Assembly (NCBI GenBank): GCA_965248445.1 | Contig: CBDFJG010000003.1 | Span: 1,600,001-1,664,000 of the forward strand | DNA: 64,000 bases | Source of the DNA: Planctomycetota bacterium | Lineage (GTDB): Bacteria; Planctomycetota; JAJSAM01; JAJVHW01 | Direction of reading: 5' to 3' | Part shown: positions 1,337-14,417 of the stretch, piece after piece | Layout of the letters: each line of letters opens with the position of its first letter | Numbering within the stretch: the stretch's first letter is position 1 | Position numbers and translations under genes: made by a program | Notes under the pieces: model-generated | The model's database searches: none | What the model saw: the letters and a program-made list of their open reading frames with translations, nothing else | Told to the model about the DNA's origin: nothing

Positions 1337-4300
1337 CTACACCGTGACGGGGAGTGCGTTCTCGCTGTACGCGGTCTCGAGAGATGCGTCCACGACGCAC
1401 TCGTATCCGTCTGCGGACAGCAGGACGGCCCCGTCGGCTTCGACGAACGCCAGATCCGCCGTGGCCGCGCTGTTCACCGTGCGGCGCACGTTGGCGACGA
1501 CGCGGACGCCGTCCCGCGGCAGGGACGACGCGTACATACGCAGCCGCCCGATCGCCGTCGGGAGTGAGGGAGCGCCGCGCGTGGCGCGCGTCCAGAGCAC
1601 CATCAGCTGGAACGCTCCGTCGAGCGCCAGCGGATCGGTGACGAAGCGCCCGCGCAGCGGTGACTCCATCCAGTCGCCGGGACGCGGCGCCGTGGCGACG
1701 TCGCCCACGATTCCGTCCGGACCGCAGGCGTCGACCTTGCGGATCGCACGCAGTAGCGGACCGTGGAACAGCTGGTCGGGGTAGAGAGCCCCGCTCCCGA
1801 TCGGCTCCCCCGCCGGCTGTTCGGGCGCAGCGGGTGCGGCCGGGAGCTGATCGACAAGCAGCGCCGTGGCGCGGGCGTGCAGTACGTCTCCCCGGGGACC
1901 GGCATCGCTGCGCAGTTCGACGGACACTCTCGACACGCCGTCTGCGTCAGCGTATGGGGCGGCGGACACGTGCACACGAACCCGCGCACTCTGCTCGGCC
2001 GTCAGCTTCAGGCCGTTCAGGACGCGCAGGTCGTCGAGACCGTGGAAGCGCAATCCCGGGTTCACGTGCAGTGCCCCGTGGGCCATCCACTCGATCATGA
2101 GGACGACCGGCAGGACGGCCTTGCCGCCGACCACGTGGTCGCGCAGGACCGGGTGAGACGCGATGTCGACAGAACGCTCGAACGCCACCGGCGCAGCCGT
2201 GATCGGCGCGGGCGGTGCGAGCGCAGCGCTGCTGCCTTCGCCAAGCACCACGACCTCGACCGCGCCACCGACGCTGGCGCGCGCCTCGCGCACGACATGA
2301 CGGGCACCGACCGCGCGGTCGATGACCTGGATGCCCTCGTCCTCGAACACGCGGCGCAGCGACGCGTCGACCATGCCGCCGTCCCATGGTCCCCAGTTGA
2401 CGGAGACGACGCGGCACGCCGGACGGCCGACCGCCTCTCGCTGCGACATCTTGTTGAGGACCTCGTTCGCTGCCGCGTAGTCGATCTGGCCCGTGCGGCC
2501 GAAACGGCCTGTCGACGACGAGAACACGACGAGCAAGCGCAGGTCCTCGGGTTCGTCCGCGGACGCCGCATCGAGCAGCGCACGGAGGCCGTCCACCTTG
2601 GTGCCGTAGACGCGGTTGAACTCCTCGATCGTCTTGTCTTCGATGCGACTGTCGGCGAGCACGCCGGCGCCGTGCACGATCCCGCGTACGGGGCCGTGGG
2701 TCGCGCGCGCGTCGGCGACGGCCGCGGCGACCGCCTCGGGGGAACGCACGTCGCACGGTGCGTAACGGACCTCCGCGCCGGCCTCGCGCATCCGGTCGAG
2801 GTTCGCCCGCGCCTCGCGCACGGCGAGCACACGGCCGACCGCGTCCTTGGCGGCGCGGGGAGAGCCGCCACCGGTTCCGCGCGCGATCATCTCTCGCAAC
2901 AGCGAGCTCTCGTCGGCGAGTCCGGCCATCCACGCGGGCTCGTCATCGAGCGTGCTGCGTCCGAGGACGAGCAGCGCGGGCACGAACTCGGCGGCGAGGG
3001 CGACGGCAACGTCCGCCGTCACACCGCGGGCGCCGCCGCTCACGACCACGAGGTCACCCTTGGCGAGAGGTGTGGCGTTGCCGTCCTCGAGCGCCTCCGC
3101 GCGCAGCGTCGGAACCATGCGGATACCCGGTGCGAAGAGACCGACTTCCGTCGGCTGCGCGAAGAACGCCTCCTCGACGATGGCGGCGGCAGCCGTTTCG
3201 AGGTCCTCGGCATCGGGTGCGACGTCGAGCGCGCGGCATGTGACGCCGGGCCACTCGTGAGCGGCAGTCTTCGCGAATCCCGCCAAGCCGGCTGTGGTCG
3301 TGTCCGCGCCGTTCATGGCCTTCAACCCGAACGCTCCGTCGAGACGCGACACCGTCACGAACAGACCGCGCGCCTCACGGAGTGCGGGCGCCGCACGGAC
3401 GAGCAGCGACAGCGTGTCGCGCAGGAACGCGTCGCCCGCTCCGCGGGATGGCGCGACGACGAACAGACCCGCAAGGCGCTCCGGCAGATCACCGGCGTTC
3501 TGCACGGCAACCACCTGGGCCGTGTGGCCGTGGTCCTGCAGCGCCGCTGCGACCGCAGCGCCGAGGCCGTTGCCGTCGCAGGCCACGAGGATCGTGCCCT
3601 CGCCCGGCGCGACGCGCTCGCGCACGTCGCCGTTCAGGTCGACCGTCGTCAGCACGTGCCGCTCGATCGCCGCCGGCGCCGCGGTCGGCGCGGGAGCGAC
3701 GGACACCGGCGCAGGAACCGCATCGCCGGAACCGCCCAGTTCGGAGACGACATCGCCCAGTGTGCGCAGAGCGCCGAGCCGTTCGCTCGCCACCGCGGGC
3801 AGGGACGGCACGCGCTCCTGCATCGCCGAGAGGATCTCGACGCGCTTGATCGAGTCGATGCCGAGGTCCGCATCGAGCTCCATGTCGAGGTCGAGCATCT
3901 CGACCGGATAGCCGGTCTTCTCGCACACGACCTCGAGCAGCAGCGAACCGAGATCGGGACCGGACGACGCGGCATCGGCCTGCACGGGCGCGGACGCGGC
4001 GACGGGCAGTTGACCCAGTTCGGCGACGACGTCGCCCAGCGTGCGAAGTGCACCGAGACGATCGCTCGCAACGGCCGGGAGCGACGGGACGCGCTCCTGC
4101 ATCGCCGAGAGGATCTCGACGCGCTTGATCGAGTCGATACCGAGATCCGCGTCGAGTTCCATGTCGAGGTCGAGCATCTCGACCGGGTAGCCGGTCTTCT
4201 CGCACACGACCTCGAGGAGCAGCGGACCGAGGTCCAGACCAGCGGCGGGCGTGGGAGTCGGGGCTGCGGCCGGCGCGGCGATCGGTGCGATCGGCGGCGC

Positions 4301-7300
4301 CACGAGCGCAGGTGCGGGAGCCGTGATCGGTGCGGCTACAACCGCGCCATCTGCGTGAGCAGATGGGCCAGAAGGCAATCCCAGCAGGGCCTCCTGCTGG
4401 CGGAGCAACGTCTCGAGGGCGCGCTGTGCGGCCTCCTGGCCCTCGAGGAACCGCCGGTGAACATCGGCGGTCTGCTCCTGCATGCGGAGGAGCGCGGTCA
4501 TCTGCTCGCGCAACGAGGCGAGCGCCGCGCCGCCTTCCGCGGCGGCACGCGGTGGCGGTTCGGCCGGTCTCCTCGTGATGGGAGACGGCGGAACGGCACT
4601 CGCCGGTGCGTGAAGCGCGGCCCCGATCGCGGGGGCGGCGAACGCGGCGGACGGAGCGGTGGCGCTGGGTGTGGGCGCTGCCTGCGGCGCGCTCGCTGGC
4701 ACCATCGGCGCGGCGGTGTCGCCGCGCACGACCGGCATCGGTGGTGCCTTCGGTCGCTTGGGACGGGGGTTCATCACGTTGGCTCCACAGATCGGGATGC
4801 GCAGGCGGCGCACCGCGTCGGCTTCATCGGCTTCTGGCGGACCGCCGTCGTTCCAGGCGTCCAGTGCGACGCCGTGACCACCGGCGGCGAGGCGCGCGAG
4901 GGCGACGGCGAGATCGTGCATACCGCTCCGCTTGCCGCTCGACGCGTCGAGTGCGACGGCTGCGTGCTCTCGCCCTTCGAGTATCCGTCCGACCAGCGCG
5001 GTCAGCCGCCCGCCGGGTCCGACTTCGAGGAAGGTGTGCACGCCGTCCGCGTGCATGCGTTCCACGAGGCCCGTCCAGTCGACGGAATTCACGAGTTGCC
5101 CGGCGAGCAGATCGCGCGCGGCGTCGGCGTCTTCCGCATACGGCTCCGCGGTCGTGTTCGCGTAGACCGGCGTCTCTCCCGCGAACGGAAGGTCGGCGAG
5201 AGCGTCACGCAGCGGACGGGCGGCGTCCGCCACCAGCGGGGAGTGGAACGCGGCGGACACCGGCAGCAGGGTCGCGCGGACTCCCTGCTCTGCGGCGAGC
5301 TCCTGGGCCCGCTCGATCTCCCGGCGTTCGCCGGAGACGACCGTTTGCACCGGCGCGTTGAGGTTGGCGATCGAGAGACGCAGTTCGCCGTCCTCGACGA
5401 ACCGCACCGCACCGTCTCCGTCCAGCGCGAGAGCCAGCATCGCCCCGCGGCCGCCGTCGCCGTCCGCCATCAGAGCACCGCGGAGACACGACAGTTCGAT
5501 CAGCGCCGCGGTGTTCCAGCCGTGCGCGGCCGAGAGCGCCGACAGTTCCCCGTAGCTGTGTCCGGCGTATGCCTGCGGCGCCAGAGCGAACGTCCCGATC
5601 AGCGCGGCGAGCGCGCCGACGCTGACCGCGCCGATGGCCGGCTGCGCGACGCGCGTGTCGCGGAGGAGCTTCTCGGCGTGCCCCCGGACGATGTCGTTCC
5701 ACTGGTTCTGCGGGAAGATGCGGTCGGACAGTTCCATCCCGACCGTCACGCCCCCGGCGAGACCGCTGGCCGCCAGCTCGAATGCCTGGTCGGCTGTTTC
5801 GAGCGCGCGCTGCACGGCCGGGAACCGGCAGGCTAGATCGCGCAACATGCCGACGTACTGCGAACCCTGTCCCGGGAACAGCACTGCGAGCTTGCCGATG
5901 AGAGAGCCGTGTCCGAAGTGTGCGCCGTCCGGCGTGCTCCACTGCTTCGCCTTCGGACGGCTCTTCAGCATTGCCTGCGCGTTGTGGAGCTGTGAGCCGA
6001 GGTCGGTGCGGTCGCGCTCGATGACGAGAACCAGCCGGTTGTCCGCGAGCGGATCGAACCGGCCCCGTGCGTCGGCCGAGCGGCGGGCGAGTTCGTCCCA
6101 CTCGATCTCTGCCGGGAACGCGGCCACTGTTGCGCGGAGCTCCTCTACCGACGCAGCGGCGAACGGCAGGATCTCGACGTCGGGGTCCCAGTCGATGCCG
6201 GGCTTCTCCGACCGATGTTCCTCGAGCACGCCGTGGAAGTTGCTGCCTCCGAATCCGAACGCGCTCAGCGCGGCGCGGCGCGGATGTGCGACCCGCCGCA
6301 GCCACGGACGCTTCTCGGTCGGAAGGTAGAACGGCGACTCACCGTCTGCGAGCGGCTCGAGCGGATCCGTGATTCGCAGCGTCGGCGGGACCACCTTGTG
6401 GAACAACGCCAGCGCGGACTTGATCAGTCCCGCGATGCCGGCGGCGGCTTTGGTGTGTCCGATCGCGGACTTCACCGAACCGAGCGCAGCCCACTGCCCG
6501 TCCGTACGAGAATCGCGGTACACCTCGGTCAGCGCGGCGAGCTCGGTCGCGTCGCCGACCCGCGTCCCGGTGCCGTGAGCCTCGACCAGTTCGACCGTCT
6601 CGGGCGAGACGTCGGCTGCGGCATACGCGCGACGGAGCGCGCGCATCTGGCCGTCGGACTTGGGCGCGTAGACAGCGCCGCCCTTGCCGTCGCTAGAAGA
6701 GCCGATGCCCTTGAGGACTGCGTAGACGCGGTCCCCGTCGCGCTCCGCGTCCGCCAGCCGCTTGAGCACGACGATGCCGACGCCCTCGCCGAGGATCGTC
6801 CCGTCGCCGGCGCAGTCGAACGGACGCGCGGCGCCCGTCGACGACAGTGCGGTCGTCTTGCTGAAGCACATGTACATGAACACGTCGCTGAACGTGTCGA
6901 CACCACCGGCGAGCACCATGTCGCTCTTGCCGGATGCGAGTTCCATCGAAGCGACGTGCAACGCGCCCATCGAACTGGCGCACGCGGCGTCGACGACACA
7001 GTTGGTCCCGTGCAGGTCCAGCCGGTTCGCGATGCGTCCGGCCACGACGTTGCCGAGCAGGCCGGGGAACGAATTCTCCTGCCACTCGGGGTAGCTGTCG
7101 GAAATGCGTGCCACGACGTCGTCAGCGAGTTCCTTCGGTACGCCCGCTTCGGCCAGCGCGCGGCGCCACACCGGGTGACCGAGACGTGCACCCAAGGGGA
7201 TGACAAGCTCGAGAGCGCCGGTGACGCCGAGAATCACACTCGCGCGATCGCGGTCGAACGTCTTGCCGTTCTTGCCGTAGCCCGCGTCGCGCAGAGCGCG

Positions 7301-7642
7301 CTTGGCTGCGACGAGTCCGAGCAGTTGCGACGTGTCGGTCGCCTCGAGGTCGCGCGGCGCGATGCCGAACTCCATCGGGTCGAAGTCGATCGCGTCGAGG
7401 AAACCGCCCTTCGCTCCGTAGAGCATGTCGCGGGACTTTGGGTCCTCGGCGAGATACGACTCGACGTCCCAGTGCGTCTCCGGAACGTCGGTGATCGCGT
7501 CGACGCCCTTCTGGAGGTTCTGCCAGTAACGCTCGAGCCCGTCGGCCTTGGGGAACATCGCCCCGATGCCGACGATCGCGATCGGGACGGAACTCCCGGT
7601 CACGGGACGGTCGATGGGCGTGGCGTCGGTCGTGTCGCTCAT
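1337..7642 (-). CDS. pfaA: PfaA-like iterative type I PUFA/polyketide synthase (KS-MAT-ACP-ACP-KR-DH)
   Basis: DAACASS, EAHGTGT, GHTKAAAG (KS); GHSYG, AFHS (malonyl-AT); two LGIDSIKRVEI (ACP); GGARGVT, YAAAN (KR); HVVGGKAVLP, DGAFQ (DH). Start reset to ATG 7642, which overlaps the pfaD stop (ATGA). Confidence 0.93.
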   Translation of the reverse strand: MSDTTDATPIDRPVTGSSVPIAIVGIGAMFPKADGLERYWQNLQKGVDAITDVPETHWDVESYLAEDPKSRDMLYGAKGGFLDAIDFDPMEFGIAPRDLEATDTSQLLGLVAAKRALRDAGYGKNGKTFDRDRASVILGVTGALELVIPLGARLGHPVWRRALAEAGVPKELADDVVARISDSYPEWQENSFPGLLGNVVAGRIANRLDLHGTNCVVDAACASSMGALHVASMELASGKSDMVLAGGVDTFSDVFMYMCFSKTTALSSTGAARPFDCAGDGTILGEGVGIVVLKRLADAERDGDRVYAVLKGIGSSSDGKGGAVYAPKSDGQMRALRRAYAAADVSPETVELVEAHGTGTRVGDATELAALTEVYRDSRTDGQWAALGSVKSAIGHTKAAAGIAGLIKSALALFHKVVPPTLRITDPLEPLADGESPFYLPTEKRPWLRRVAHPRRAALSAFGFGGSNFHGVLEEHRSEKPGIDWDPDVEILPFAAASVEELRATVAAFPAEIEWDELARRSADARGRFDPLADNRLVLVIERDRTDLGSQLHNAQAMLKSRPKAKQWSTPDGAHFGHGSLIGKLAVLFPGQGSQYVGMLRDLACRFPAVQRALETADQAFELAASGLAGGVTVGMELSDRIFPQNQWNDIVRGHAEKLLRDTRVAQPAIGAVSVGALAALIGTFALAPQAYAGHSYGELSALSAAHGWNTAALIELSCLRGALMADGDGGRGAMLALALDGDGAVRFVEDGELRLSIANLNAPVQTVVSGERREIERAQELAAEQGVRATLLPVSAAFHSPLVADAARPLRDALADLPFAGETPVYANTTAEPYAEDADAARDLLAGQLVNSVDWTGLVERMHADGVHTFLEVGPGGRLTALVGRILEGREHAAVALDASSGKRSGMHDLAVALARLAAGGHGVALDAWNDGGPPEADEADAVRRLRIPICGANVMNPRPKRPKAPPMPVVRGDTAAPMVPASAPQAAPTPSATAPSAAFAAPAIGAALHAPASAVPPSPITRRPAEPPPRAAAEGGAALASLREQMTALLRMQEQTADVHRRFLEGQEAAQRALETLLRQQEALLGLPSGPSAHADGAVVAAPITAPAPALVAPPIAPIAAPAAAPTPTPAAGLDLGPLLLEVVCEKTGYPVEMLDLDMELDADLGIDSIKRVEILSAMQERVPSLPAVASDRLGALRTLGDVVAELGQLPVAASAPVQADAASSGPDLGSLLLEVVCEKTGYPVEMLDLDMELDADLGIDSIKRVEILSAMQERVPSLPAVASERLGALRTLGDVVSELGGSGDAVPAPVSVAPAPTAAPAAIERHVLTTVDLNGDVRERVAPGEGTILVACDGNGLGAAVAAALQDHGHTAQVVAVQNAGDLPERLAGLFVVAPSRGAGDAFLRDTLSLLVRAAPALREARGLFVTVSRLDGAFGLKAMNGADTTTAGLAGFAKTAAHEWPGVTCRALDVAPDAEDLETAAAAIVEEAFFAQPTEVGLFAPGIRMVPTLRAEALEDGNATPLAKGDLVVVSGGARGVTADVAVALAAEFVPALLVLGRSTLDDEPAWMAGLADESSLLREMIARGTGGGSPRAAKDAVGRVLAVREARANLDRMREAGAEVRYAPCDVRSPEAVAAAVADARATHGPVRGIVHGAGVLADSRIEDKTIEEFNRVYGTKVDGLRALLDAASADEPEDLRLLVVFSSSTGRFGRTGQIDYAAANEVLNKMSQREAVGRPACRVVSVNWGPWDGGMVDASLRRVFEDEGIQVIDRAVGARHVVREARASVGGAVEVVVLGEGSSAALAPPAPITAAPVAFERSVDIASHPVLRDHVVGGKAVLPVVLMIEWMAHGALHVNPGLRFHGLDDLRVLNGLKLTAEQSARVRVHVSAAPYADADGVSRVSVELRSDAGPRGDVLHARATALLVDQLPAAPAAPEQPAGEPIGSGALYPDQLFHGPLLRAIRKVDACGPDGIVGDVATAPRPGDWMESPLRGRFVTDPLALDGAFQLMVLWTRATRGAPSLPTAIGRLRMYASSLPRDGVRVVANVRRTVNSAATADLAFVEADGAVLLSADGYECVVDASLETAYSENALPVTV
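3735..4240 (-). repeat. Two tandem, near-identical ACP-domain coding repeats inside pfaA
   Basis: LLLEVVCEKTGYPVEMLDLDMELDADLGIDSIKRVEILSAMQERVPSLPAVAS occurs twice, with high nucleotide identity. Confidence 0.9.
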
Positions 7643-9306
7643 CCCATCCGTTCCTCGAGGTCCGCTCGCGGAAGCGCACGAACGTCGTCCGCTCCAGGGG
7701 GCAATGTTACGCCCTGAGCCCGCAGACTCACCGTTCGCGTGAGAACCGCCGCACCCTGAAGCAGGTTCAGGGCTACGGTCATCACGTCGCGGTTGGCCGG
7801 CTCGGCCAGGAAGGTGCCGGCCGTCCACTCGTTGAACGCTCCCATCGCCGGGCCGCACCAGACCTGGTAGTCGACCTTCCTGGTGGGCTCCCCCCCGTTG
7901 GCCCAGGCCGACGACTGGCCGAGATACCACCGGAAGACCAGCGCCATGCGGTGCTTCGGATCGGTCGCCGCCCGCTCGATCTGGCGCGGGTCTCGTACCT
8001 CGAAGTACGCGACCGTCTCCCGCCACACCTCGTCCAGGGGCTTGCGGAGGATGCGCGTCTCGAGCTCGGTCCGCTCCTTGGCGGTCAGATCGTCGAGCGA
8101 GGCCCGTGCGCGGTAGAGGTCGAACAGCTTCTGCGCCCGCATGGCGAAGAGCGTTCCGCGCTTGAGCACCTGGACCCGCACGCCCATCTCGAACATGTCG
8201 GCGGCGGGCGCCATGACGACGTCAGCCTGCCCGGCCGCGGCCAGCATCGACCGCACCTCGTCCGAGGTGCCGGCCTCGCGGCACGCCTGGTTGACGCTGC
8301 CCGTGAGCACGTACGCCGCGCCCAGTGCGAACGCGGCTGCGGCCGACGCCGGCGTCGCAATGCCTCCGGCGGCGCCGACACGCAGTGGGATGCCGTAACC
8401 GTGCTCGCTCGCCATCCGGGCCGCCAGCGCGCGCATGGTCGGGATGAGCGCGATGGCCGGACGGTTGTCCGTGTGGCCTCCGGAGTCCGCCTCGGCGGTG
8501 ATGTCCTGCGCCACCGGAACGTTCGCCGCGAGATCCGCCTGCTCGCGGGTCAGGTCGCCCCGTCGCACGAGTTCGTCCACCATCGCGGCCGGTGCGGGCG
8601 ACAGGAACTGCGAGGCCACCTCGACGCGGGAGACCTTGGCCAGGACGCGGTTCGGCGTGACGACCGAGCCGTCGGGCCCTCGCGCAATCCCCGCGAGCCG
8701 GTAGCGGACGAGCGGCAGCGTCAGCCCGAGGTACGCCGACGCGGACACGAGCCGCACGCCCTGCCGCACGTACAGGTCCGCAACCGCCTTCTCGACGGCC
8801 GGTTCGTTCGGACTGTGGATGAGGTTGAACCCGTGCGGCAGCCCGCCGACGGTGCGCTGCAACCGGTCCACGGCCGCCTCGACCTTGCCAACCGGCAGGC
8901 CCGCGGCGCCGAAGAACCCCACGCACCCAGCCCGTGCCATCGCCTCGACAACGTCGCACGAGCCGATCCCGTTGGCCATGGCCCCCGCCACGTACGCGAA
9001 GCGAAGCCCATGTTCCTCGCGGAACGAGGCGTCACCGAGGCTCTCGGCCCGGCACGCGGGCACGATCGCCAGAAGACGCAGCCCCTCGCCACCGTCGAAC
9101 TCGACAGATCCGCCCGTCGCGACGGCGGGCCCGTCCGGTGTAGCGACCACGACGAACGGCGTCGGGCCCGCGAGCGCTCTCTTGAGCGCACCGCGCGACG
9201 CGTCGGGGACGGTCTGTCCGCGCCACACCGCCCCCGCTGGGAGCGGCGCCGCGTCACGCGCACCCGCGTGCGGCGGGCGGACCGGGGTGGATTCGGTGAG
9301 ACTCAC
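7639..9306 (-). CDS. pfaD: PfaD-family FMN-dependent enoyl reductase
   Basis: AGAMANGI, AKVSRVEVA, AEADSGGHTD, GAAGGI, TGSVNQ, MAPAADMFEMG, DYQVWCGPAMGAFN motifs. Confidence 0.93.
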   Translation of the reverse strand: MSLTESTPVRPPHAGARDAAPLPAGAVWRGQTVPDASRGALKRALAGPTPFVVVATPDGPAVATGGSVEFDGGEGLRLLAIVPACRAESLGDASFREEHGLRFAYVAGAMANGIGSCDVVEAMARAGCVGFFGAAGLPVGKVEAAVDRLQRTVGGLPHGFNLIHSPNEPAVEKAVADLYVRQGVRLVSASAYLGLTLPLVRYRLAGIARGPDGSVVTPNRVLAKVSRVEVASQFLSPAPAAMVDELVRRGDLTREQADLAANVPVAQDITAEADSGGHTDNRPAIALIPTMRALAARMASEHGYGIPLRVGAAGGIATPASAAAAFALGAAYVLTGSVNQACREAGTSDEVRSMLAAAGQADVVMAPAADMFEMGVRVQVLKRGTLFAMRAQKLFDLYRARASLDDLTAKERTELETRILRKPLDEVWRETVAYFEVRDPRQIERAATDPKHRMALVFRWYLGQSSAWANGGEPTRKVDYQVWCGPAMGAFNEWTAGTFLAEPANRDVMTVALNLLQGAAVLTRTVSLRAQGVTLPPGADDVRALPRADLEERMG

Positions 9307-10635: not shown

Positions 10636-11916
10636 TCACTCTCCACTGACAGTGGGGAGCGCGATCGTCTTCCGTTCACCCCCGCGGATGACGACGATCT
10701 CGACGCTCTCCCCGGCTGCGTGCTCGAGCCGGAACCACGACTGAAAGTGCAGTTCGCTCCGGAAGTCGGTCTTTCCGCCGACCGAGACGACGACGTCGTC
10801 CTTGCGGATGCCGGCCTTGTGCGCGTTGCGGCCGGTGTGGGCGTTCGGCCCCCAGGTCACCAGGTAGCCCACCCGGAAGGCGAACTGCTCGACCGGGATG
10901 CCGAGATCGCCCTTGGCCGCGGCGTCGATGGCGCGGCCGCCGAAGCCGGGCTTCGGGTCGAGGCGCCACATCGTGCCCCGCCAAGCCATGTCGAGCGGCC
11001 CACCCTCGCGCCAGCCCTTGGCGAGACCCCGGCGGAGAGTCCGCTCCTCCTCACCCCGGCGGACGACGAAGCTCGGCTTCCCGCCCTTCGAGGGGACGCC
11101 TTCGAGCACGGCCTGCAAGTCGCCTTCGGTGGCGATCGGCCGGTCGGCGCCGCGCAGCAGCCGGTCGCCCGCGAGGAAACCCGCCTTCGCCGCCGCCGAA
11201 CCCTCGTCCACCGACGTAACGAGTGACTGATCGTCCCTGTCGGTGTGCAGGCCGACGCGACCGCCGTCCGGCCAGCGCCACGCGTCCCGTTCGTCCCACT
11301 TGCCGTCCTCGCGGGCTCCCTCGTCGCGCGCCTGGAACACCATGTGGCAGTGGAAGCACTCCGGCCCCTTGCCGGCCTTCACGCGGCGCGCCATCGTCGG
11401 GAGTTCCTCGACCGTGCTCGGCCGGCGCTTCTTCAGCTTGACCGGCGTCAGCGCGGGGAACTCGGTGAGCGTTGTGCGCATGACGGCGGCGAGCGAGTCC
11501 ATCGAGAGATGCGACTGCGCCCCGCTCGGATCGCGGTTGCCGTAGTGGTGCAGGATGCGCCCGTCCGGCGCCATGAACAGGATGGAGAACGTGAGGTCGT
11601 AGTCGAACACGTAGGTGTTCAGGTCGACGCCTTCCATGTTCATGATGCGAACGCACTCGAACTCGCGGGAGAGACGCGCGATCTCCTCCGGCGGCTGACG
11701 GACCAACTGCCCGTCGAACGCTTGCGCGTCCTTTCAAGGGTCTCAACGGAAGACGACCATCAGTGGCCGGCCCTTGTCCGCCGCGTCCGCCCGCGCGGCT
11801 GTCAGGTCCTGCCGCCACTGGATGGTGACGGCCTGGTCCTCGGCGGTCGCGAACGCGGCGAACCCGGCGACCACCGCCCCGAGGAGCAGCAAGGCAAACG
11901 TGTAAGCTCTCGGCAT
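10636..11916 (-). CDS. Secreted thioredoxin-like/PDZ-domain selenoprotein with UxxU motif (426 aa; Sec58 and Sec61)
   Basis: Track ORFs 11743..12165 and 10636..11706 are in the same frame, separated only by TGA-GAC-CCT-TGA plus 9 sense codons: WRQDLTAARADAADKGRPLMVVFR-U-D-P-U-KDAQAFDGQL. Signal peptide from ATG 11916, CFHCH motif, two PDZ-like regions. Confidence 0.85.
11697..11731 (-). promoter_or_regulatory. Two candidate bacterial SECIS hairpins
   Basis: GGACGC-GCAA-GCGTTC begins 11 nt after the first UGA; GACGGGC-AGTTG-GTCCGTC begins 18 nt after the second UGA. Confidence 0.5.
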
Positions 11917-13032: not shown

Positions 13033-14052
13033 CTAGTCGTCCTTGCCGCCGGTGATCGCGGGGGCCTCGAACAGCGTGAACACATAGTCCGCACCGGTCA
13101 CCATGATCGTCAGCTTGTCGCCCTCGAGCGATGCATCGACGGTCTCGAGCGGCTTCTTGCGCTTGACCACGCGCCGGAACCCGCCGAACTCGGCGACGTC
13201 GTCCTTACCATTCCGCGAGCGCACCCACAGGTAGGGTTCGTCGCCACCGGTCAGCGCCAGGAGGGCGGCGCCGCCCTCGCCCGGAGCGCCCTTGTGCACG
13301 ACCGCCACGGCGATCTCGCCCTCGTGTTCCTCGAGGAAGCTCGTCCGCACGGCCGGTTCGGCGAACTGCACGAAGTCGAGCACGATCTCCTCGCCGTCGG
13401 CCCGCTCACCCTTGAGTCGCGTTATCTTCGCCGCCTCGAAGCGCACGACGCCCGCGTTCGGTCCGAAGCGCAGGCGCACGTCGACGGCAGGGAGTGCTTC
13501 CCACTTCTTGCGAAGGGCGGGTTCGTACTCGACGTCGTCCGGAACCTCGAACAGGTCCAGCAGCGCAGCGTCACCGGTCGCAGCGGGACGCTCGATCGGA
13601 ACGGCCGCTCCGCGAGTCGTCTTCACGAGCTCGATCTCGAGCGACTTGCCGGCCTTCTTGTCCGTCGTGCCGGCCGGCGTTCCAACCGTCGCGGGCAGGA
13701 CCGCGAACTCGGTGCTGTCCTCGCTCCACTTCCAGTCGTTCTCCTCGAAGACGACGAGCTCCCACTTGCGCTCCTCCCAGAAGCGCAGGTTCAGGGTCAT
13801 CTCCCCGGGGAGGAGCATCGAGTCGGCGCCGACGAGCGCCATCTTCTCGATCGTGAGTCGCGTGGGCCCGTCCTTGCCGAGCCGCCACGTCAGACCCGGC
13901 TGTAGCTGCTCCATCAGTTCGGGCCGGAACCGAATCGCGTTCCAGCGCACGCGCGCCGAGCCGAGTCCCTTCATCTTGAGCGCGCTGTCGCCCGCGAACG
14001 CGGCGGCGGCAACCACGAGCAGTGTGGCGGCCGTGACCGTGACGCGCCTCAT
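13033..14052 (-). CDS. Hypothetical secreted protein
   Basis: Signal peptide MRRVTVTAATLLVVAAAAFA; GC3-rich codons; ATGA-coupled to the upstream gene. Confidence 0.75.
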   Translation of the reverse strand: MRRVTVTAATLLVVAAAAFAGDSALKMKGLGSARVRWNAIRFRPELMEQLQPGLTWRLGKDGPTRLTIEKMALVGADSMLLPGEMTLNLRFWEERKWELVVFEENDWKWSEDSTEFAVLPATVGTPAGTTDKKAGKSLEIELVKTTRGAAVPIERPAATGDAALLDLFEVPDDVEYEPALRKKWEALPAVDVRLRFGPNAGVVRFEAAKITRLKGERADGEEIVLDFVQFAEPAVRTSFLEEHEGEIAVAVVHKGAPGEGGAALLALTGGDEPYLWVRSRNGKDDVAEFGGFRRVVKRKKPLETVDASLEGDKLTIMVTGADYVFTLFEAPAITGGKDD

Positions 14053-14417
14053 CGGGAGTCACCCTGCGCCGCGAAGACGTGATCCAGTTGCGTGCGCAGT
14101 GCGTCGTGGGCGATGTCCGCGCCGTCCACGACGCTTGCGGCTGCGACGCCGAGGGTGACGGCCACGACCTCCTCGAGTTCGGCGCGCGTTGCGCCCATCT
14201 CGACGAGCTTCCGCATGTGGCCCTCGATGCAATTCTTCGCGCCGGTGCCGAGTGAGACACCGAACGCGATGAGCTCCTTGGTCTTCATGTCCAGGGCGCC
14301 GTCGCGGAACACCAGCCGGTAGTAGCCGAGGTAGTGCCGACGCACGTCCTCTCCGAGGAGCGCGTACGAGTCGATATCGCCCGGATCGCGAGCCGGTTCG
14401 TCACCTGCCATGGTCAT
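14049..14417 (-). CDS. Carboxymuconolactone decarboxylase/AhpD-like protein
   Basis: GALDMKTKELIAFGVS...NCIEGH...GATRAELEEVV pattern. Confidence 0.85.
   Translation of the reverse strand: MTMAGDEPARDPGDIDSYALLGEDVRRHYLGYYRLVFRDGALDMKTKELIAFGVSLGTGAKNCIEGHMRKLVEMGATRAELEEVVAVTLGVAAASVVDGADIAHDALRTQLDHVFAAQGDSR

Follow-up and report, generated by a model that had tools for sequence, protein, structure and literature searches.

The minus strand of a 64,000-nucleotide stretch of planctomycetotal DNA (the window) carries a gene that very likely encodes a selenoprotein with two in-frame UGA codons and with a hairpin that is linked to the first of them (UGA1). Comparison of homologous sequences suggests that both UGAs are probably decoded as selenocysteine by means of a single predicted SECIS element (hairpin 2), and that the preceding hairpin (hairpin 1) probably serves UGA1 by folding the spacer in front of this element. 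The family to which the gene belongs, the Trx7/PDZ selenoproteins, is already known, and so is the UxxU motif in other families; new here are the link between a helper hairpin and SECIS distance in single-UGA families and a correction of the register in which the two UGAs fall on the thioredoxin site. The question the family addresses is how two UGAs a few codons apart are decoded.

An earlier note on this DNA had placed the gene at 10636..11916 without naming a strand. The interval is correct, but the coding frame runs on the minus strand, from 11916 to 10636; the plus frame of the same interval was rejected as a gene. In translation the read-through frame reads ...VVFR*DP*KDAQ..., and between the N-terminus and the terminal TGA there are no internal stops besides these two TGAs, which join a signal-peptide ORF to a CxxCH/PDZ ORF, as the note had supposed, in one intact reading frame (Table 1). 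The protein is a member of NF041199 (Trx7/PDZ selenoprotein), whose model it matches over positions 1-389 of 390 and whose architecture of Thioredoxin_7 and PDZ domains it shows. Structure models were made with Cys at the Sec positions; that of the read-through protein has a mean pLDDT of 91. Foldseek with the whole model returned PDZ matches only, and the Thioredoxin_7 domain superimposes on its best structural match over 118 aligned residues (Z 13.7, rmsd 2.2). A hydrophobic stretch lies upstream of the motif in 118/118 UxxU homologues with enough upstream sequence.

Table 1. Features of the Trx7/PDZ selenoprotein gene, in positions of the window
Feature	Position	Strand	Evidence or remark
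Trx7/PDZ selenoprotein gene	10636..11916	-	426 aa with both TGA read; NF041199 369.4 bits, curated cut-off 300
Predicted signal peptide, residues about 1-25	11842..11916	-	hydrophobic stretch in sequence; pLDDT < 50 for 1-25
Thioredoxin_7 domain, residues 33-117	11566..11820	-	E 2.5e-11; best structural match 3f9u
UGA1, predicted Sec58, 3 residues before canonical first Cys	11743..11745	-	TGA in 124/235, TGC/TGT in 111/235 homologues
UGA2, predicted Sec61, canonical first (nucleophilic) Cys position	11734..11736	-	TGA in 194/235 homologues
Hairpin 1, GGACGC-GCAA-GCGUUC, inferred spacer-shortening helper	11716..11731	-	+12 to +27 after UGA1; mainly UxxU genes; pair probability 0.93
Hairpin 2, GACGGGC-AGUUG-GUCCGUC, predicted SECIS	11697..11715	-	loop G at 11707 (+27 from UGA2, +36 from UGA1)
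CxxCH motif (CFHCH, 187-191), putative c-type heme site	11344..11358	-	in 234/234 homologues long enough to check
PDZ domain 1, residues 226-294	11035..11241	-	domain search
PDZ domain 2, residues about 320-426	10639..10959	-	domain search; DegQ/HtrA PDZ matches, Z 11.8

All 99 matches of the read-through protein in protein databases cover at most 85% of the query, which is expected if gene callers cut at the UGAs and which bears out the earlier note's prediction that they would split the gene. The split would also suit a pseudogene, a sequencing error or two separate ORFs, an explanation that is scarcely credible, since the same two TGAs stand in 124 distinct genes from 31 of the 38 sampled families, a paralogue in the same genome among them, since the frame has no other stops and neither UGA site has TAA or TAG in any of 235 homologues, and since the genome has the full selenocysteine machinery.

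The 235 distinct homologous genes comprise 124 with UxxU, 70 with CxxU, 41 with CxxC and none with UxxC. Position 61 is Cys in 41 of them, and the alignment that the note had proposed finds Cys or UGA at both 58 and 61. UxxU, which the note had called rare, is the commonest sampled form within this family. The NF041199 profile was matched in 136 of 401 genomes of the phylum, and the first set consisted of the 150 matches listed (73 UxxU, 44 CxxU, 33 CxxC, 0 UxxC), with 31 unlisted matches and one duplicate CxxC gene left out; its UxxU genes (73/73) run for 345-381 codons to the next stop. To this set were added 19 new genome loci, the whole yield of family- and order-level searches, and 67 usable metagenome loci, which were gathered with patterns from close relatives and are therefore biased towards close relatives. 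The metagenome loci were 80 before removal of 8 duplicates, 2 without the motif (L238, L260), 2 without the N-terminus (L252, L290) and L224, a contig-end artefact scored as 'UxxC'. At two loci (L115 and L131) two UxxU genes of the family stand in tandem, one copy of each pair having a weak hairpin 1 (-1.4).

The Trx7/PDZ (seleno)protein NF041199 is tabulated as CxxU with one Sec (PMC13188914, PMC9312934), both tables citing the GOS study, whose 'putative secreted serine protease MucD' with CxxU (PMC2398784) probably denotes the same family; in the present protein no protease domain turned up. The latter shares with NF041199 a score above the family cut-off, the Trx7 and PDZ domains and Sec at 61, but it is UxxU where CxxU is tabulated, and in the motif [C/U]xx[C/U]xxC it has Ala at the third place. 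A family catalogued as containing one Sec is mostly a two-Sec family in the sampled genomes, and it is truncated in protein databases. Among bacterial selenoproteins, UxxU is listed for Prx-like/SelL-related proteins (PF00578), the metal-binding protein NF041115 and the FmdB family (PMC13188914); these have two Sec three residues apart, as here, but are different proteins. In the open-licence literature we found no description of the UxxU form of the Trx7/PDZ family or of the helper hairpin; figures, supplements, the NCBIfam model comment and BSepDB entries lay outside the scope of this search and may record UxxU members.

The genome (5.4 Mb, 92% complete) contains selA, selB, selD and one tRNA-Sec(UCA), each above cut-off, so that all of selA, selB, selC and selD, for which the earlier note had advised looking, are present. 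The gene selB was detected by a single match to the SelB wing domain family, and selD contains a TGA of its own. TGA is the commonest stop in the genome (959 of 1531 long genes), which argues for recoding at UGA1 and UGA2 and against a changed genetic code. UGA1 might also be read as Cys by a SelC*/tRNA-ReC or act as a leaky, selenium-sensitive stop, the protein then being effectively CxxU. For UXXU hydrogenases a tRNA-ReC has been reported in about 56% of the genomes, where the UGA may be Cys (PMC13582414), and in the Trx7/PDZ family position 1 often switches between TGA and TGC (28 changes on the tree described below). We regard this reading as very improbable, since ARAGORN found one full UCA tRNA and one GCA tRNA-Cys in the 92% complete genome (relaxed settings, -ps85, gave noise only), since the SelB wing was matched once, and since the sole other tRNA-Sec-like match is an incomplete copy whose 5' end is foreign. 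This copy (G000:C2:392732-392810, minus strand) comprises the 3' two-thirds of tRNA-Sec, lies about 63 kb from selC on the opposite strand, and may be what is left of the attachment site of an integrated element.

Hairpin 1 starts 11 nt after UGA1 and hairpin 2 starts 18 nt after UGA2, exactly where the earlier note had put them. In the present gene alone folding is only modestly beyond chance: a 57-nt piece has z = -2.23 (5 of 200 shuffles as stable), and six other pieces have z between -0.27 and -1.74. The support comes from the homologues, in each of which two fixed windows were compared with 200 synonymous recodings. Hairpin 2 folds in 124/124 UxxU and in 70/70 CxxU genes; its mean shift relative to the recodings was -6.1 in the UxxU genes of the first set (73/73 folding), -5.3 in the CxxU genes (44/44) and -0.7 in the CxxC genes, where the window does not go beyond expectation. 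Hairpin 1 folds in 110/124 UxxU versus 13/70 CxxU genes and is weak or absent in the other 14 UxxU genes. In the first set it reached -3 kcal/mol or lower in 65/73 UxxU, 11/44 CxxU and 3/32 CxxC genes and was more stable than the recodings in 71/73, 21/44 and 24/32, respectively, with mean shifts of -3.25, +0.13 and -0.34. In the metagenome set the -3 kcal/mol threshold was reached in 40/45 UxxU versus 2/22 CxxU genes (p 2e-9). Sliding windows over 40 genes per class gave a stability peak at +7 to +10 in UxxU genes only and one at +28 to +31 in both UxxU and CxxU genes. A control with Cys-motif genes of the genome, which is small (n=10) and consists mostly of proteins other than thioredoxins, gave a mean shift of -0.31 (3/10).

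The link between hairpin 1 and UGA1 was examined on a tree of 233 proteins in which the codons of the motif and of the hairpins were masked and from which two short rows were left out. Among the 28 changes at position 1 there were 19 supported independent pairs, for which the sign test gave a median p of 0.0005-0.039 over five thresholds. A PGLS regression yielded a slope of -3.6 kcal/mol (p 5e-21), 24 of 28 contrasts agreeing, and hairpin 2, taken as control on the same tree, had no significant link to position 1. A first tree (150 rows, 10 supported pairs) was underpowered; four absolute-energy thresholds were not significant there (median p 0.22-0.45) and the recoding-corrected one was (0.016). 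The covariation that the earlier note had hoped to see in both hairpins is evident for hairpin 2, of which 90.9% of the cells are paired and 5 of 7 pairs have double changes; for hairpin 1 one fixed register pairs 63% of the cells (47% in CxxU genes). RNAalifold recovered the core of hairpin 2 only and not hairpin 1. The register of hairpin 1 shifts between lineages, and this is why RNAalifold and fixed-register counts capture it poorly. Selection on both hairpins is supported by these comparisons.

As calibration served 20 genes hand-picked from 33 UGA motif candidates of the same genome, which are themselves predictions; the SECIS of selD was left out, plain MFE folding not having recovered it. 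Eighteen of the 20 match thioredoxin, AhpD, DsbD or DUF3179 families, and the other two (L306 and L313) had no Pfam or NCBIfam match at the thresholds used. Seventeen of them have the loop G at +19 to +28; it could not be assigned in one and is far in two (L312 at +32, L310 at +35), both of which have an extra hairpin filling the spacer between UGA and SECIS. The loops read G-U or G-G in 18 of the 19 assignable cases, and the genes with a near SECIS all have a stem that starts by about +19.

The genome holds at least 20 further UGA-readthrough genes for redox proteins (L302-L321, on several contigs; thioredoxin, TlpA, AhpD, DsbD, DUF3179), a predicted selenoproteome that would be large and, as most N-termini are signal-like, mostly exported. 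The UxxU paralogue (L013, G000:C3:1539388-1540575, plus strand, FR-U-VP-U-AGC) has a hairpin 1 that is strong (-10.6 kcal/mol) and uses another register. Pairwise BLAST of the read-through protein against another Trx7 protein of the genome gave no match. At G000:C2:719266 (plus strand) two adjacent TGAs have coding-like codon use on both sides (GGDH-TGA-TGA-PSFKF), possibly a double stop overlapped by a start.

The published bSECIS consensus asks for a loop of 3-9 nt, a stem of 4-16 bp, a G as first or second loop base (in many cases with G or U after it), a distance of 16-37 nt from the UGA and an MFE of -7.5 or lower (PMC13188914). Hairpin 2 agrees with it in every respect: its stem of 7 bp and its loop AGUUG fold at -11.7 kcal/mol, at a distance of 25 nt from UGA2 and 34 nt from UGA1. 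With the consensus and fdhF it shares a loop of 3-5 nt in which G is followed by G or U, and its distance from UGA2 is 25-26 nt. A G occupies one of its first two loop positions in 124/124 UxxU and 70/70 CxxU genes, where 0.69 and 0.64 are expected, and stands at +27 in 190 of the 194. Each UGA could have its own SelB-binding hairpin, hairpin 1 serving UGA1 and hairpin 2 serving UGA2. Such a tandem arrangement would account for hairpin 1 tracking UGA1 and hairpin 2 tracking UGA2; hairpin 1 starts at the fdhF distance from UGA1, its loop G is at +17 in 88 of 110 genes, and in the present gene it formally lies within the consensus (17 nt spacing, GCAA with G first, -7.7 kcal/mol; family mean -5.6 kcal/mol). 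We nevertheless consider two SECIS elements rather unlikely. The G in the loop of hairpin 1 (97/110, or 0.88, versus 0.83 expected) is frequent because a conserved Cys codon supplies it, and of the 10 UxxU genes without this third Cys, 5 have G neither first nor second in the loop. The G is followed by C, unlike the G-U or G-G of the genome's other candidates, and the Cys codon UGU, which would give a G-U loop, is not enriched in hairpin 1 (17/114 versus 13.9% in the genome). At +17 or +18 the G is also closer to the UGA than in any candidate of the genome, and a hairpin in the same place, mostly without G, occurs in single-UGA genes with a far SECIS. Of the two SECIS-like hairpins of the earlier note, hairpin 2 has the SECIS signature; the behaviour of hairpin 1 is more that of a helper than that of another SECIS.

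The single-UGA genes in question form two unrelated thioredoxin families with distant SECIS (+32 to +40), which have a conserved hairpin, mostly G-less, at hairpin 1's place. Family B (L310 and L322-L344) consists of UxxC genes. Where the loop G lies at +34 to +39 (16 genes), the stretch from +10 to +27 was more stable than the recodings in 16/16 (mean shift -4.4), and none of 15 spacer loops starts with G, most being AUCA. L334, with its SECIS at +27, has no spacer hairpin, nor do three Cys homologues of the family; in a further near gene, L338, the spacer window overlaps the SECIS. Family C (L312 and L345-L414) was sampled with 72 genes from 70 of 120 matches, the other 50 being left out. 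An invariant CGG-TCG-CTC SECIS loop stands at +32 in 58 genes, in 57 of which the spacer hairpin is more stable than the recodings (mean -4.2 kcal/mol); the Arg codon that pairs in the spacer is CGG in 51/54, versus 0.23 in gene bodies of the Trx7/PDZ family (family A). In a subgroup whose SECIS lies at up to +40, beyond the published limit of 37 nt, the spacer hairpin is present in 9/9 genes and stronger (mean -8.7 versus -4.2 kcal/mol at +32, p 1e-4), which may reflect more room. The loop G remained uncalled in 5 genes of family C. The statistics for both families ignore kinship, and the Cys control consists of the three homologues in family B, with none in family C.

From these data we lean towards the following view. 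In this lineage the reach of SelB would be short, with the loop G at about +19 to +28; genes with a SECIS farther away would carry a helper at about +10 to +27 that collapses the spacer; and the Trx7/PDZ family would toggle this helper together with UGA1 over about 28 changes, so that one SECIS would serve both UGAs, which are 9 nt apart. While UGA1 occupies the A site, the two hairpins would fold next to each other, hairpin 1 over +12 to +27 and hairpin 2 over +28 to +46, and the loop G of hairpin 2, which is 36 nt from UGA1 in sequence, would come to lie effectively about 20 nt away, as G23 does in fdhF. Three codons on, hairpin 1 would be drawn into the ribosome and melt, and the same loop G would then be 27 nt from UGA2. 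Measured against the genome's own range of +19 to +28, the 27 nt from UGA2 are inside and the 36 nt from UGA1 outside. Omitting the 9 nt that directly follow UGA1 gives pair probabilities of 0.93 for hairpin 1 and 0.97 for hairpin 2. When the folded bases are subtracted, the distance from UGA to G has medians of 17, 20, 20 and 21 in four gene groups, values that are partly fixed by the chosen windows; in E. coli fdhF the corresponding G23 is 20 nt after the UGA (PMC8659212). Against the need for a helper it can be held that the published spacing of 16-37 nt lets hairpin 2 reach UGA1 (34 nt) alone.

A single SECIS is also assumed in an explanation in which hairpin 1, at the mRNA entry, pauses the ribosome or counteracts termination and so buys time for SelB, with no role in distance; its model is the Sec redefinition element of eukaryotes. 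Three observations speak for a pause: the median start of the helper is +9 to +11 in each of the four gene groups, roughly the point at which the ribosome encounters a duplex; every near-SECIS gene of the genome has a stem that begins by about +19; and the loop sequence of the helper is free. However, recoding is also predicted for UGA2 and for the CxxU genes, where no hairpin precedes +19. Nor does a pure pause need a helper that adjoins the SECIS (median gap 0-3 nt) and gains in strength with the distance of the SECIS. We therefore think a pause alone unlikely and prefer a hairpin 1 that shortens the spacer.

In September 2026 Group 4 [NiFeSe] hydrogenases with UXXU were described, in which two UGAs are likewise 9 nt apart and a single downstream SECIS was proposed to serve both; the report describes the SECIS architecture as unchanged between CXXU and UXXU and adds that 'additional factors may be involved' (PMC13582414). 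No extra element is proposed for these hydrogenases, whereas in the Trx7/PDZ family the gain of UGA1 goes with the gain of a hairpin. In the accounts of bacterial SECIS elements consulted there is one stem-loop per UGA at a spacing of 16-37 nt, with no separate spacer hairpin in the parts covered (PMC13188914, PMC8659212). Our findings suggest that the far end of this range is reached with a helper hairpin; the occurrence of the same element in single-UGA genes with a distant SECIS means that it could be a widespread component of bacterial Sec decoding that has been overlooked. If the proposal is true, a short reach of SelB together with a helper would explain the loose consensus of 16-37 nt and would give a design rule for placing one or two Sec in recombinant proteins. 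With 124 natural double-UGA genes and 70 single-UGA relatives as controls, the family points to a specific cis-element.

The earlier note had put the two UGAs exactly on the CxxC of the thioredoxin fold. Ungapped alignments to ERp18 and to PDB 3fk8 (FGANWCTDC) show that the pair lies three residues too early for this: U61 corresponds to the first Cys and residue 64 to the second, and U58 falls on the Ala of A-x-W-C. Residue 64 is Cys in 114/124 UxxU, 63/70 CxxU and 41/41 CxxC genes, from which, together with the alignment of U61 and residue 64, it follows that the family motif is [C/U]xx[C/U]xxC and that U58 is extra. In the present gene residue 64 is Ala, so that a putative diselenide between U58 and U61 is the only bridge possible at this site. 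In SelL-type proteins the two Sec take the places of the canonical CxxC and are joined by a diselenide; in the present protein U61 alone has a canonical place, in which respect it differs from that type. Residue 58 directly follows a strand in both models, and the helix starts at 62 or 65, depending on the model. ERp18/AGR2, DsbD-gamma and DsbH-type thioredoxins (PDB 2k8v, 3fk8, 3f9u, 2ju5) have the same fold (Z 10-13.7) and the same position of the first Cys; the present protein differs in the additional Sec/Cys three residues earlier, in the lack of the cis-Pro, whose position reads L-T, and in the CxxCH segment and two PDZ domains fused behind.

The genome contains Cytochrom_C_asm genes (two matches of PF01578), so that a CxxCH motif in a predicted exported protein and a maturation system are both present; heme attachment is putative. 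The thioredoxin register, the CxxCH conserved in the homologues and the cytochrome c assembly genes have led us to the tentative idea that the protein may be a periplasmic thiol/selenol oxidoreductase in which U58/U61 exchange electrons with a c-type heme and the PDZ domains bind clients.

Clustering of neighbours over 171 loci revealed no conserved neighbour gene; the top cluster consisted of antisense shadow ORFs, and the largest of the real ones reached 7 genus or locus labels. Two genes upstream in the window (14049-14417, minus strand) lies a small ORF that we take to be carboxymuconolactone decarboxylase/AhpD-like, for which no conserved link to the Trx7/PDZ family was seen. Just downstream of the gene (1337-9306, minus strand) are a large ORF resembling polyketide/polyunsaturated-fatty-acid synthases and a PfaD-like ORF, both labelled from a look at their translations.
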